A stretch of DNA of 63,916 nt, counting the filler, from an uncultured Methanoregulaceae archaeon (GTDB lineage: Archaea; Halobacteriota; Methanomicrobia; Methanomicrobiales; Methanospirillaceae), in assembly GCA_964530035.1 (NCBI GenBank). It is 6 parts of 6 records of this genome, joined end to end, with 100 filler letters (N's around TTAATTAATTAA, not from the genome) between each part and the next. Parts side by side here need not be neighbours in the genome. Positions count along the whole stretch, not along the records: positions 54,360 to 63,916 come from CAZGXZ010000095.1; 5 more parts are not named here. One strand, given 5' to 3'. The stretch's first letter is position 1; each line of letters starts with the position of its first letter. Under the pieces are notes generated by a model. The model was not told where the DNA came from and searched no databases. It worked only from the letters and a program-made list of their open reading frames with translations. Positions 54,068-59,309 of the stretch are shown here, one piece after another. Both the position numbers and the translations under genes were made by a program.

Positions 54068-54359
54068 CTTCAGGGCCCTCATTACCTGCCGTTCTTTTTC
54101 CCGCCGAGCTGATGAAGATCTCCTTGAATCTCTATATTTTACATCTATAGGCTTGTTGAAACCATATGATCGGAATTGCAACTGATGGATATCTCTCATA
54201 ATGTGGTGAATAAAATTGAAGAGAGAGAAGATTTTAGCGGAACAAAAAATTTCATTTTTNNNNNNNNNNNNNNNNNNNNNNNNNNNNNNNNNNNNNNNNN
54301 NNNTTAATTAATTAANNNNNNNNNNNNNNNNNNNNNNNNNNNNNNNNNNNNNNNNNNNN

Positions 54360-54563
54360 GACCCTCTCGTCGCCTTTCCTCATGCTTTCAAGGAGTTTTT
54401 CCTCGTTCCTCGTCAGGCCACGGCGGATTTTCCTCCGGGCACGCGAGGGCATGACCGGGACGAGGTCTGAAACCGCCATGCCCTGGAGGTCCCCAATGGT
54501 ATACCCGTGATAGGTAAACTCCTCGCGGCGCCTCGGCACTCTCTTCTGGGTTTTCTTTGCCAT
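54360..54563 (-). CDS. rps19p: 30S ribosomal protein S19 (5' part)
   Basis: EFTYHGYT...MPSRARRKIRRG; follows rpl2. Confidence 0.92.
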
Positions 54564-54569
54564 TTGTCC

Positions 54570-55286
54570 TCACCTCTTGCCTGCCCCGGTCCTGCGGGCA
54601 GCGATATGTCCAATCTTCCTGCCTGGAGAGGTTCCCCGGCTGACGGTCTTCGGCCTTCCGGGGTGCTGGTGCCCACCGCCACCGAACGGGTGGTCGATGA
54701 CGTTCATGGCGACTCCTCGTACCCTCGGCCAGTTGCTGGCGGTGTTCCGCATCTTGTGGTACTTGTTTCCTGCCTTCACGAACGGTTTCTCTCCCCGGCC
54801 GCCCCCGGCGACGATGCCAACGGTAGCCCGGCAGTTGCCATTGAACCACTTCACCGAGCCGCTCGGCATCTGGACCGCGACATTGTCCCCGATCCTGTCG
54901 GTGACCATCGCCTGGACGCCACCCGACCGGACGAATTTACCGCCGTCATTCGGACGCGCTTCGATATTACAGACATAGATCCCCGTGGGGATCGAGGACA
55001 GGGGAAGGGTATTCCCGTTCCTGACCTCTGCCTCAGGTCCCCAGGCTATTGCCTGGCCGACACCGGTCCCTTCCGTGGCGAGGGCATAGGTCTTGGTCCC
55101 GTCTTCAAGTCTCACCAGGGCAATGGGAGCCGAACGTGCAGGGTCGTGTTCAATATCTATGACACTTCCCCTGACCGTTGTCTTTCCGGACCCCAGGTGC
55201 TTTAAGGCAGCCTTGAAGCGGTGAGACGGTGCGCGGTATACCGGACCGCCTCTTCCCCTGTTCTGGGTTGTTATGCGATGTCCCAT
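54570..55286 (-). CDS. rpl2: 50S ribosomal protein L2
   Basis: HDPARSAP, WPRVRGVAMN..DHPFGGG. Confidence 0.98.
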   Translation of the reverse strand: MGHRITTQNRGRGGPVYRAPSHRFKAALKHLGSGKTTVRGSVIDIEHDPARSAPIALVRLEDGTKTYALATEGTGVGQAIAWGPEAEVRNGNTLPLSSIPTGIYVCNIEARPNDGGKFVRSGGVQAMVTDRIGDNVAVQMPSGSVKWFNGNCRATVGIVAGGGRGEKPFVKAGNKYHKMRNTASNWPRVRGVAMNVIDHPFGGGGHQHPGRPKTVSRGTSPGRKIGHIAARRTGAGKR

Positions 55287-55295
55287 GGTCCAACC

Positions 55296-55544
55296 TCACA
55301 TGATTCCCAGCCGGCTGAGGATTTCCTCGGCGGCCTTTTCGTTCTCAAAACTGACAATAGCCTTCTTCTCGCCGTGGGTGGTCATGACGGTCCTGACCGA
55401 GGTGACCTTCTGCCCGAAGAGTTTTTCGATCTCCCGCTTGATACGGGTCTTATCGGCGGTATTGTCCACCAGGAACTGTATCTTGTTCTGGTTCTCGAGC
55501 ATCATCATTGCCTTTTCTGTGACAAAGGGGTGTTTCAGGACCAT
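55296..55544 (-). CDS. rpl23: 50S ribosomal protein L23
   Basis: HPFVTEKA, GEKKAIV. Confidence 0.96.
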   Translation of the reverse strand: MVLKHPFVTEKAMMMLENQNKIQFLVDNTADKTRIKREIEKLFGQKVTSVRTVMTTHGEKKAIVSFENEKAAEEILSRLGIM

Positions 55545-56291
55545 TTACCTCGCCTCCAGGCCCTTTATCGCACCTTCGGTCCATATGGTGAGCCTTCCGG
55601 CATGGGTGCCGGGTGCGAGGAGTTCTGTGTTGATCTGCCCGACCGTGACGATGTCCACTCCGGCAAGGTTCTTTGCAGCAGTGAGAGGCGCACGGGAGGT
55701 GACAATGAGGAGACTCTTCCTCTGCTTGTATTTCCTGCCACGGAGCTTCCCCCTTCCGGGACGGATCTTCCGGCTGGCATGAGACCGTTCGACATCGGCA
55801 TACAGGCCGGTTGCCTTGAGGACTTCGACGACGTCCTTCGTCTTGGTAAGGTCTTCGAAGCGGTCCTCGATGACGAACGGGAGTACTCCCTCGAACCGGT
55901 GGCCCCTGCTCCTCACGACAGCATCCGATGTTGTCGCTGCGATCGCTGAGTTAAGTGCCTTTCTCTTTTCTTTCCGGTTGATGAACCGTTCGAGGATTTT
56001 CTCGACTTTCGGGGGATGGGCTTCCCTTCCACCGACAGCCTGCGGGACGCGGGCTCCGCGTGACCCGTTCTTCAGTCTGGGGAGGTGCGATGCACCACGG
56101 CCGCTTCCCCACCCTACCGCCGAAGTCTCGATACCGGCGTAGGGATGGGTCCCATGTGGCTGCCTTCTGCAGCTCTGGATGGCAATGACCGCCTTTTTTA
56201 TAAGGTCCGGCCTGTATTCCTCTTCGAATACCAACGGCAGGTCTATCTCGCGGTCTTTCTTTCCTTCAATTGTTAATACTTGTGCCTTCAT
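55545..56291 (-). CDS. rpl4: 50S ribosomal protein L4
   Basis: RPDLIKKAV, WGSGRG, GGREAHPPK, LAPGTHAGRLTIWT. Confidence 0.97.
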   Translation of the reverse strand: MKAQVLTIEGKKDREIDLPLVFEEEYRPDLIKKAVIAIQSCRRQPHGTHPYAGIETSAVGWGSGRGASHLPRLKNGSRGARVPQAVGGREAHPPKVEKILERFINRKEKRKALNSAIAATTSDAVVRSRGHRFEGVLPFVIEDRFEDLTKTKDVVEVLKATGLYADVERSHASRKIRPGRGKLRGRKYKQRKSLLIVTSRAPLTAAKNLAGVDIVTVGQINTELLAPGTHAGRLTIWTEGAIKGLEAR

Positions 56292-56297
56292 CACCGC

Positions 56298-57308
56298 TCA
56301 CCCCTGCTTGCTCTGGAGGCTCACAAACCCGACCGCGGGGGTCCTCACGTGGTGTTCTCCCTGGCGGATCGCCGGCCTCATGCGGATCAGCCGCTTCGAT
56401 GGCCCGGGGATGGACCCCTTGATGAGGACGTATCCGTTCCGGACAACACCGTAATGGAGGAAACCGCCCGTCGGAGTGACTTCCGAACCGTCCTCACCGA
56501 TCTTGATAATGCGCTTGTTGAACTCGGTCCTCTGCTGGTATCCGAGCTGACCGGCCTGCGGGACCTGCCAGCGGACATGGTGGGGGTTCCAGGGACCAAG
56601 ACATCCAATGTGCCGCTCTTTTCCTCCACGGCTATGCTTCCTCTTCCGGAGCTTGATGCCCCACCGTTTGACCGGGCCCTGCGTCCCCTTACCCGTGGTG
56701 ACAGCGGTGATATCCGTATATGCACCTGACTGGAAGATATCGGCGACCCGGATTTCCTTTCCAAGGATCCCCTGCGCATACGCATACTGCTTCGGGATAT
56801 CTCCCCCGGCAATCTTGACCTCCATGAGGTCAGGCACTTTTTTCGGGACACCGGTGATCTCGTATGGAGTTGTATACATGAGCGCATACAGCTCGACGAC
56901 CTCGCCTGATGCAACGGCAGATTCCATCCTGCCACTGGCTTCATCAGAGGACTTTTTGGGGAGATTTACCCGTTTCCCGAGCTCTTCGTCGAGTGAAGGT
57001 GCCCAGACCTCTCCAATCGCCCGCTTCCCGTAGGTGTCCCTGGTGTAGGCCCTCAGGGCGGCGACCTTCATGGAAGGTACCTCGATGACCGTGACCGGTA
57101 CCATGATCTCCTTCCCTTCGGTCGGGCTGAACTTGTGGTCATCGACCATGACGATATGCGTCATGCCAACCTTGTAACCGGCAAAGCCCAGGAGGCGCGG
57201 TTCGCCCTCATACCCGGGCCATGCATTGTAGCGCGGCACAGGGCTCTTCGCCCGTTTCCTCGGGCTGTATGCAAGTGAACCTTTGCGGGGTGTGTTTATT
57301 TTCGGCAT
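56298..57308 (-). CDS. rpl3: 50S ribosomal protein L3
   Basis: [41 protein letters not shown]; start MPKINTP 57308 with AGGAAGG upstream. Confidence 0.97.
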
Positions 57309-57790
57309 ATTCTGTTCCTTCCTATAGTGGTATCCCTTGGAAACCACGGGGGCGGTTCAGGTTGCGGCGTACCGTATTCACGGATGAAGGCATACCTGCA
57401 GGTTCGGGGACACCTGTCCCGCTGGATCTGCATCAGCCGAATCATGCTCCGGAGGGCATATCTCCGGACACTGCCGATACCCGAAACCGGCTTCCCGGGT
57501 CTCACGAAGAGATCCTGACTCCAACGCCTCCATGTACTGACACACGGAACGGGCACGTGATGCCACACGTTCGCCCACGGGCGGTCTTGTCAGTTCCCTA
57601 CATCTTCATGGCGTGTTAAACACGCCATACTCGTTCTGCACCACCCTGAGGCGGTGCCACCCTGCAACCAGGAATCCTGAATGCGGGGACAAGGAGCGTT
57701 TTCACCCTCCCCTGCGGCCCTGCAAAGCTGCAGAGGCGCATAAATCTCCGTATCCGTCAGCGATACTCTGGTGTAGGCTTCCGTAATGGT
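57309..57790 (-). ncRNA. Putative long structured leader / ncRNA upstream of rpl3
   Basis: No credible ORF; at least 7 local hairpins plus long-range pairs; TTTATC-type TATA element near 57805-57812 on the minus strand. Confidence 0.5.
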
Positions 57791-57847
57791 TAGCAGAAAG
57801 AAAAGATAAAGGTATTGGACAGTAGGATACCGTGAGTACCTCCCGGG

Positions 57848-58252
57848 TCAGGCGAAGTAGATCTCTCCGTCATCGTTGATGTAGACGTTCACATCATCCC
57901 TGATCTGCCGGGCTTTCAGACGTTCTGGGATTGATTCCCGGAGGCGGTTGATGAGCGAGATAGTATCATACCTCACCTTGATGCCCATGACACCGGCCTC
58001 CTTGTAGATGAGGGGTGCAACTTCCAGGAGGTCGCTTCCCGAGGGCAGGGTACACAAGGGCCTGGCATCAAGGGTATACATGAATTCCAGGGTTTCCTTG
58101 GCCCTCCTTACATTTTCAAGGGCGGCCTTCTCGATGGTGCAGACATTGGCCTTTGAGGTTTCAATAATATCTGCTATCTGCTGCTGCGTCATCCCCTGCC
58201 GACGGTACCGGAGTACCTCCTTCTGTCGTTCAGTAAGAAGGCCTTCTTTCAT
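57848..58252 (-). CDS. tfx: Tfx-family DNA-binding protein
   Basis: LTERQKEVLRYR.QGMTQQQIA....TSKANV..IEK.A.EN..RA.ETL. Confidence 0.9.
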   Translation of the reverse strand: MKEGLLTERQKEVLRYRRQGMTQQQIADIIETSKANVCTIEKAALENVRRAKETLEFMYTLDARPLCTLPSGSDLLEVAPLIYKEAGVMGIKVRYDTISLINRLRESIPERLKARQIRDDVNVYINDDGEIYFA

Positions 58253-58466
58253 CAAACTCCGTACGCTTGATAAATTTAAACACTTTTCGTTAACCTCATA
58301 CCGGCACCCGCTGCAGTCGCAGGACAGGGATACCCGCTCTGCCGGAGGATGGTAGTGACCAGGTAGTTCTCTCTTTTAATTGCATTTTTTTCCAAAAACT
58401 AGATTTCAAAATGTTTATATGTACTCTTGCCACAGGTACGTTATCACCGTACAAAGAGGTGTTTCT

Positions 58467-59309
58467 ATGGTAGTAAAAGTCGGAATTGCAAAGCTCGGAA
58501 ATATTGCGAGTGGTGTGATGGGAGAACTGCTCCTCGATGAGCGTGCTGACCGTGAGGATGTCCAGACCTTCATGGCAACAAGCGGGACCAAGCTCCAGCC
58601 CGAAGACATCGACCGCGTGGTCTCCAACATGAAGGCATGGAAGCCGGACTTCGCCGTTGTCGTATCCCCGAATGGTGTCCTTCCCGGGCCCAAGGGAGCC
58701 CGTGAACAGCTCCTTGCAGCCGGAATCCCCTGCGTTGTCATAACTGATGACATCACCACCAAGAAAGAAGACTGGGAGGCCTTAAAGGCAAGCAAGTTCG
58801 GCTATATTATCATGAAGGGCGATGCAATGATTGGCGCCCGCCGTGAGTTCCTCGACCCCGTCGAGATGGCTGACTACAACGGCAACCTTGTAAAAGTCCT
58901 CTCACTCACCGGTGCATTCCGCAAGCTCCAGATGGGACTCGACAAGGTCATCGACCAGGTCAAGGCAGGAAAGTCAGGTGACGCCCTTGAACTCCCGAAG
59001 ATCGTCATGACATCCGACCTTGCGGTGGAAGGGGAGTTTTCGAACCCGTACGCACAGGCCAAGGCGCGTGCAGCCTACGAGATTGCCCAGGCGGTCGCCG
59101 GCGTCAACGTGAAGGGCTGCTTCATGACCAAGGAATGGGAGAAGTACATCCCGATCGTCTGCAGCGCACATGAGATGATGAGGGTCGCCGCAGCGCTCTG
59201 TGACGAGGCCCGCGAGATCGAGAAGGCCGGCGACGGAATCATCCGCAAGCCCCACAAGAAAGACGGCGTAATCGTTGCCAAGACCAAGCTGATCAGCAAG
59301 CCTGAATAA
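58467..59309 (+). CDS. mtd: F420-dependent methylene-H4MPT dehydrogenase
   Basis: [47 protein letters not shown]. Confidence 0.97.

Follow-up and report, generated by a model that had tools for sequence, protein, structure and literature searches.

The rpl3 leader of a Methanomicrobiales archaeon as a probable remnant of a lost SPOUT methyltransferase gene that kept its RNA element

To our knowledge, very few archaeal ribosomal protein leaders have been validated; L4 binding in the L3 mRNA of Methanocaldococcus jannaschii has reportedly been studied. In E. coli, uL4 is described as regulating the S10 operon via a long structured leader (PMC10931766). The L4-Archaeoglobi motif (RF03135) is a candidate ribosomal protein leader, of which 54% of the known copies lie inside PF02598 genes and 46% outside genes (PMC7247131). 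In the available text of that paper, Eckert and Weinberg 2020 report covariation in both the in-gene and the out-of-gene sets, propose L4 as the ligand by precedent only, rate the motif as borderline, do not mark it as rRNA-like, and argue against the methyltransferase as its present ligand (PMC7247131). The PF02598 (COG2106) SPOUT gene, represented by HVO_2565 and belonging to the SPOUT1/Ptch family, heads archaeal rpl3 operons. Its product is predicted to make m3U2619 in archaeal 23S rRNA (PMC2584109), and the fly and human homologue is reported to make m3U in 28S rRNA (bioRxiv 2024.06.27.600882). In the methanogen Methanolobus psychrophilus, processing of long ribosomal protein 5′ UTRs is reported to stabilise and activate the transcripts (PMC5499594).

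Here, we describe the leader of the rpl3 operon in a window of 63,916 nt, the whole stretch of DNA that was analysed. It shares with RF03135 all 85 model positions, the helices and the place before rpl3-rpl4-rpl23-rpl2, and falls into the non-overlapping 46% class; it differs in that the conserved RNA is about twice the length of the model, with an upstream hairpin, an outer P1 and a 3′ tail. Like the E. coli S10 leader, it is a long structured 5′ leader of an L3, L4, L23, L2, S19 operon. Unlike that leader, it has no Rfam match to the bacterial S10 leader and no intrinsic terminator in a bacterial-type scan, and its ribosomal protein ligand is a candidate. With the PF02598 gene it has in common the promoter, the position between tfx and rpl3, and the RNA block, but it lacks a reading frame, is about half as long, and has lost the protein similarity. 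Published work already covers the core motif and the way it overlaps the gene; new are the extension beyond the Rfam model and the copy in Methanosarcinaceae. The overlapping and non-overlapping classes are described in PMC7247131, whose available text holds neither gene loss as the link between them nor the Methanosarcinaceae form. A literature search that covered few subscription journals found no paper that derives the free copies from gene loss and none on this form.

The locus and its RF03135 core

On the minus strand, a tfx-family gene is followed by a gap of 539 nt and then by rpl3, rpl4, rpl23 and rpl2 (Table 1). The nearest named L3 is 97% identical and comes from a metagenome-assembled genome of an uncultured Methanospirillaceae archaeon, placing the window in the Methanomicrobiales. 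Pfam confirms L3, L4, L23 and L2 of the L3-L4-L23-L2-S19 operon named in the initial annotation; the last piece, cut by an N gap, is presumably an S19-like fragment and had no match in the Pfam search. The N run (about 54312-54360) lies inside this S19-like gene and represents a scaffold gap, since the his genes beyond it face the ribosomal operon from the opposite strand. On the other side, at 57848-59309, the tfx gene and a gene for F420-dependent methylene-H4MPT dehydrogenase (mtd) are divergent neighbours. The leader stretch is single-copy and identical in the window's own assembly.

The TATA-like element previously noticed near 57805-57812 is TTTATC at 57810-57805. The layout of TATA, about 25 nt and GGAAGCC recurs upstream of rpl3 in most relatives, those with an intact methyltransferase gene included, and a purine-rich Shine-Dalgarno (SD) sequence is kept in relatives as well. 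A bacterial-type promoter and terminator scan, ill-suited to archaea, returned nothing. An ATG about 10 nt past the predicted start (leader positions 10-13) is widely kept in relatives and absent in the window's genus; a stop follows it directly in L026, and in L115 it opens the frame of the methyltransferase gene. At one locus (L007/L185, genome G019), the promoter and the first ~100 nt of the leader are absent although present in the close relatives L186 and L188, possibly through a deletion or an assembly error.

Table 1. Features of the rpl3 locus, in window coordinates.
Feature	Position	Strand	Basis or remark
tfx-family regulator gene, upstream neighbour	57848..58255	-	PF14601, E 1.7e-29
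TATA box TTTATC of operon promoter	57805..57810	-	TATA-~25 nt-GGAAGCC layout in most relatives
GGAAGCC with predicted transcription start 57782	57776..57782	-	conservation; start predicted
Non-coding rpl3 leader, 474 nt, very probably in place of a lost PF02598 SPOUT methyltransferase gene	57309..57782	-	
GAAA hairpin (GGAGGGT-GAAA)	57693..57710	-	pair probability 0.85; genus-specific, not conserved across order
Hairpin HA (GCACCGCC)	57638..57657	-	pair probability 0.98
Hairpin HB (ATGGCGTGT)	57608..57628	-	homologue of conserved GTTGTG/CACAAC hairpin, outside Rfam model
RF03135 L4-Archaeoglobi core	57515..57593	-	P1, internal loop, three-way junction with P2/P3 and P4
Conserved 3′ tail GATCT-N-TTCGYGAGAC	57498..57514	-	alignments; outside Rfam model
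TCCGGAG hairpin	57448..57468	-	genus-specific; pair probability 0.97; identical in congener
SD-proximal hairpin (GTGGTTTCC)	57327..57347	-	strands can alternatively pair with conserved tail 57498-57514
Shine-Dalgarno-like AGGAAGGA	57316..57323	-	sequence
rpl3 (uL3)	56298..57308	-	PF00297, E 2e-87
rpl4 (uL4), candidate ligand by precedent	55545..56294	-	PF00573, E 3.8e-37
rpl23	55296..55544	-	PF00276
rpl2	54570..55286	-	PF03947, PF00181

The densely structured non-coding leader of ~480 nt proposed from the sequence alone is borne out at 474 nt. The 482-nt region folds at -201.8 kcal/mol, with a z-score of -3.49 against shuffled sequences, none of the 100 equalling it. Six stretches of the same length from the window gave z -2.6 to +0.8, and eight leaders gave z -2.0 to -8.7 (10 shuffles each in both sets). 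The longest open reading frames within or across the leader reach 57-132 aa and are chance-like. ARAGORN found no tRNA in the leader region, and no RNase P, SRP or other Rfam RNA reached its gathering threshold in the whole window, in agreement with the absence of credible frames and of such signatures noted before.

The leader had been regarded as not assignable to a known family. Although the Rfam search gave no family at the gathering threshold, RF03135 matches just below it and over its full length (model positions 1-85 of 85; 34.1 bits, E 1.4e-4, 0.4 bit under the cut-off of 34.5 bits). The window's core aligns as a homologue of members above the cut-off and shows a CUGAC/GUCAG helix, an internal loop, and a three-way junction with a GGGY/GCCC stem and a variable stem. 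For the 474-nt leader, the unconstrained fold and the fold constrained to the RF03135 structure have the same energy. Among related genomes, RF03135 was matched in 18 of 41, 14 of the 41 being above the cut-off, at the same locus; across the phylum it was found in 90 of 151. Wherever loci were read, the RNA element lies upstream of rpl3. The large cis-regulatory RNA first suggested thus stands as a conserved, structured, cis-located RNA at the head of the L3 operon, with a core that was already catalogued.

The second suggestion, an rRNA mimic, found no support in the comparison made. When 61 cores were compared with two 23S sequences by short-motif look-ups and local alignment, matches clustered near the sarcin-ricin region, but the best local scores averaged 26.8 against 25.5 +/- 2.7 for shuffles, no better than chance; this comparison was at the sequence level, and a three-dimensional mimic is possible. 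The core model R1 had no match in a 23S locus at E up to 10.

All strings quoted in the initial annotation lie on the minus strand at their places, and four of the quoted hairpins have a mean pair probability of 0.85-0.98 (partition function of the 474-nt leader). Other proposed pairings gave way. CAGGT/ACCTG (0.01) is replaced by GGGAC/GTCCC (0.96), which is preserved in the congener; pairing of the ends through ACGGAT/ATCCGT has probability 0.0; and in the enclosing helix the partner of CTGAC is GTCAG at 57519-57515, in agreement with the Rfam structure, instead of TGTCAG at 57542-57537. The strings of the SD-proximal hairpin are present, but its probability is 0.0 because a longer competing pairing wins. 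The duplex between the tail and the SD-proximal strands reaches -24.5 kcal/mol in the window and beats 40 of 40 shuffles. A general tail-to-SD switch was considered and rejected, this pairing being significant in only 6 of 46 leaders, the window among the 6.

Conservation across the order is limited to about 170 nt of the 474-nt leader and does not reach the other 300 nt or so; several hairpins are genus-specific. The place of HA is taken by a hairpin of variable sequence in many relatives (position judged by eye in the alignment, covariation not counted). The congener carries a similar GAAA hairpin with changes, and shares the other hairpins, some with compensating changes; these do not extend across the order. 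Since a metagenome scan with a close-relative pattern returned only one record, near-identical to the congener, the genus-specific hairpins rest on two sequences.

A methyltransferase gene probably once in the leader's place

In two genomes of genus g25, an intact PF02598 frame of 279 aa (E 1e-55) stands between the promoter and rpl3. Locus L115 has the order tfx, promoter, intact gene, rpl3, which is the order of the window but for the methyltransferase gene. The distance from promoter to rpl3 is 884-962 nt with the gene and a median of 550 nt (397-622) in 97 gene-less leaders. Only starts lying 380-660 nt upstream were accepted for this set, in which Methanoregula is heavily represented, and 5 loci offered no start. 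When 25 diverse gene-less leaders were compared with an intact transcript, only three parts were alike: the opening 14 nt, a block at about 360-530, and the SD. The block of ~170 nt encodes YREGVV...RIYSRDG in the intact gene. Aligned to intact transcripts, the window's leader scored -58 and -61, against means of -120 and -137 (sd ~12) for shuffled sequences.

Within intact genes, the block is constrained at synonymous positions. Fourfold-degenerate sites were conserved in 111/144 comparisons inside and 167/425 outside the block for four Methanomicrobiales genes, and in 1035/1292 inside and 2872/5500 outside for eleven halophile-type genes; over four groups the proportions in and out of the block were 0.77/0.39, 0.72/0.47, 0.80/0.52 and 0.48/0.33, all of them pairwise counts from pairs that are not independent.

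The window's leader has no PF02598 frame of ~280 codons, and its own genome (86% complete) gave 0 PF02598 matches. In a three-frame profile search, the best domain in the window's leader had E 2.6, and 103 gene-less leaders gave weak matches over the RNA block alone (best E 3e-4). With no protein-level remnant detectable, descent of the window's leader from the gene rests on synteny and the RNA block. The initial annotation had named a decayed protein gene as an outcome that would speak against a regulatory RNA. The locus is by synteny the site of a lost gene, no peptide remnant was found, and a function of the RNA is supported as well; a decayed gene and a functional RNA are both true here. 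A search for loci related to the intact methyltransferase returned only its own source.

Decay can be followed in genus g55 (family f14, probably Methanocella-like), in which one of six genomes has the gene and four of six have the RF03135 motif. In the gene-less loci L233-L235, the 800 nt upstream of rpl3 hold a broken frame and peptide remnants with E 3e-6 to 6e-6, while in the congener L238 the gene is intact; judged from these sequences, g55 shows the methyltransferase gene in mid-decay. Retention of the RNA has exceptions, since in families f12 and f15 three loci (L246, L248, L249) have neither gene nor element and only a short gap before rpl3. In two genomes of family f10 (G230:C1:2228222-2228975 and G239:C8:219411-220164), PF02598 matches in two pieces, one with a TGA inside, possibly reflecting early decay or an assembly error.

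Conserved RNA beyond the Rfam model and in Methanosarcinaceae

A core model built from 34 sequences, the window among them, matched 137 of 141 genomes of the class, a count that takes in the training genomes, with a single copy in all but one. The exception, G108, carries two copies (C65:622-722 and C67:49607-49703). For a structure of 32 pairs, 23 change on both sides, and 84% of cells are paired against 77% in shuffled alignments, with 0 of 500 as high. The alignment holds 47 of 61 non-redundant cores plus the congener, leaves out 14 mostly Methanoregula-type rows, includes 3 coding rows and is not phylogeny-corrected, and the paired-cell count favours the tested structure because that structure was drawn from the Rfam fold and the same alignment. 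Conservation and covariation of rpl3 upstream regions, raised at the outset as a check, are thus both seen. The perfect hairpin at 57608-57628, quoted from the start, proves to be the homologue of a conserved upstream hairpin in which 7 of 7 pairs show changes on both sides (48 sequences). RNAalifold unaided gave only 8 pairs, 4 in the upstream hairpin and 4 in P2. A pattern scan with the 3′ tail returned 28 records, 26 of them archaeal by title and 2 bacterial chance matches.

In family f7, none of 18 genomes has PF02598 and none of 18 an RF03135 match; on two f7 loci Rfam gave no match even at E 10. Between 250 and 900 nt upstream of rpl3, the f7 leaders (L245, L247, L250-L272) carry a diverged copy of the RF03135 fold. 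RNAalifold gave the same topology for 19 of 22 distinct sequences, and in 11 of 16 pairs both partners have changed. The Methanomicrobiales core model, trained without f7, matched 14 of 22 loci where the copy was expected (E 3e-4 to 0.95, 11 under 0.1, all rough E-values), with one weak off-target match among the f7 loci and one in 3 control loci. A strict pattern of this form matched 5 of 25 loci, and a looser one, circular in that it was drawn from the same loci, all 25. A pattern from f7 loci returned 69 records, mostly titled Methanosarcina, Methanolobus, Methanomethylovorans, Methanococcoides or Methanosarcinaceae/-ales, and on the strength of these names f7 is identified as Methanosarcinaceae. 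This copy, missed by Rfam, brings the element into a genetically tractable genus.

Several candidate longer-range pairings emerged along the leaders. Of two motifs, CCGAGA ahead of the upstream hairpin and TCTCGG at 36-209 nt from rpl3 on its upstream side, 22 leaders have both and 20 have neither, and each stands alone in 2 (n=46; kin are not independent, and no compensatory change was seen). The pair is found in many relatives, for example L018, L022 and L115, and the window has neither part. Methanoregula-type leaders such as L039 have an invariant candidate helix of 11 bp between the 5′ end and a site ~100 nt before rpl3, and this site has a second potential partner in a 6-mer immediately ahead of the SD, so that a switch is conceivable. 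As a general feature, a helix joining the 5′ end to the 3′ part was rejected; it holds in Methanoregula-type leaders and fails across the order. A mutual-information scan of 43 full Methanoregula-type leaders, too shallow at an effective number of 20, yielded no clean covarying pairs and only invariant candidate helices.

Origin, proposed mechanism and alternatives

We postulate that the leader is the remnant of the head of the rpl3 operon after loss of the PF02598 SPOUT rRNA-methyltransferase gene, with the RNA element kept, and hold this identity and origin to be very likely. The gene heading the operon would have shrunk by about half and ceased to be an open frame, whereas the promoter and the RNA embedded in its coding sequence (RF03135 and flanking hairpins, ~170 nt) would have been kept through the loss. 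Its retention in nearly all genomes of the class after gene loss is good evidence that the RNA has a job of its own. For that job, we favour, with some reserve, feedback by a ribosomal protein of the operon, for which the fixed position of the element and the uL4 precedent in E. coli speak. The three-way-junction core would be the binding site, for uL4 by precedent or for uL3; a protein in excess over rRNA would bind it and lower expression of the operon. Most likely, the effect would run through the 200 nt that separate the core from the rpl3 ribosome-binding site, by a change in how they fold or are processed. Against feedback speak the lack of rRNA likeness in the sequence comparison, the position of the core 190-280 nt from the start codon, and the tail-to-SD pairing, significant in only 6 of 46 leaders. 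To origin and feedback jointly we give a probability of roughly 0.55. The postulated loss would explain the oddity that made the describers of RF03135 doubt it, the out-of-gene copies being leftovers after loss of the host gene, and would make a clear case of a regulatory RNA outliving its carrier coding sequence several times over.

The main rival to ribosomal protein feedback is RNA processing. With the same origin, control would lie in RNA processing or stability: a nuclease or general RNA-binding protein would recognise its fold, cleavage would free the rpl3 ribosome-binding site, and the leader might persist separately. We regard this as possible but unlikely. The processing of ribosomal protein leaders in M. 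psychrophilus gives it a precedent, also a long structured leader in a methanogen; no processing site is shown for rpl3, the leaders of that study are not described as gene relics in its available parts, and no L3 row is among the supplement rows listed (PMC5499594). Four RNA runs from two studies, out of 19 runs listed, each gave one contig over the leader (57348-57748, 57384-57771, 57480-57762 and 57487-57761), and among the contigs listed none bridges to rpl3 and none covers tfx, while mtd is covered. The upper ends, at 57748-57771, stop 11-34 nt before the predicted start is reached and so hint, weakly, that the predicted promoter drives transcription. With a depth of 3-7 and no strand, these contigs cannot show ends or levels, 5 further pieces exist beyond those listed, and the missing cover over tfx and between leader and rpl3 is not taken as proof. 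The failure to find rRNA mimicry is in keeping with processing; the ancestral position of the core, mid-gene and ~400 nt from rpl3, would be a poor place for freeing the SD.

A wider reading has the Rfam motif as the core of a larger, multi-domain RNA, born in the coding gene, freed by independent losses in at least three lineages, and later equipped with long-range helices spanning 300-470 nt. Its partner would be something other than a single free ribosomal protein, for instance a nuclease or an intermediate of early 50S assembly; alternatively, it would be cut off as a stable RNA. We consider this rather doubtful; if true, it would amount to archaeal ribosome-synthesis control of a kind not yet described.

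Another reading makes the methyltransferase the original target, which the element would have bound or regulated as a substrate mimic within the enzyme's mRNA; what survives would be a relic or a co-opted element. We hold this to be improbable. The overlap with the coding sequence in 54% of known cases (PMC7247131) fits such a beginning, as does the activity predicted or shown for the family, m3U in rRNA (PMC2584109; bioRxiv 2024.06.27.600882). PF02598 is present in 80 of 151 genomes of the phylum, where gene and motif co-occur family by family. In the class, however, the gene is found in 4 of 201 genomes (2%) and the RNA is conserved in ~97%. Because the RNA is conserved with covariation where the gene is gone, the enzyme cannot be its present ligand.

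The motif might also be older than the overlap, with non-coding leaders as the ancestral state of the order and the few intact genes brought back to one and the same site by transfer. Intact genes are indeed rare and scattered: in a quick L3 tree of 64 rows, the Methanomicrobiales that have them branch at three separate points within gene-less lineages, plain parsimony gets by with 5 changes (starred branches force 3), and the intact Methanomicrobiales examples are all of MAG type. Against regain, the six intact PF02598 proteins group together in a single clade (support 0.999), and its two subgroups fit the L3 tree, which favours inheritance with repeated loss. The intact genes moreover share the order's promoter, 5′ motif and tfx neighbour, the latter by synteny in L115; the conserved RNA block, when translated, gives the YREGVV...RIYSRD stretch of the protein; and the g55 peptide remnants show decay in progress. 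We thus judge regain very improbable, and the trees point to repeated gene loss.

That the leader is a neutral pseudogene whose folding is incidental to G+C content is scarcely credible and, for the core, largely refuted: the ~300 of 474 nt that are not conserved across the order and the one coding control that reached z -2.6 would suit it, but covariation, invariant columns across families, synonymous constraint in intact genes and retention in 137 of 141 genomes speak against it.

As a minor observation, archaeal-type rpl3 or leader sequence also turned up on contigs titled Gammaproteobacteria and Bacteroidales (L110, L296), which is probably binning contamination.
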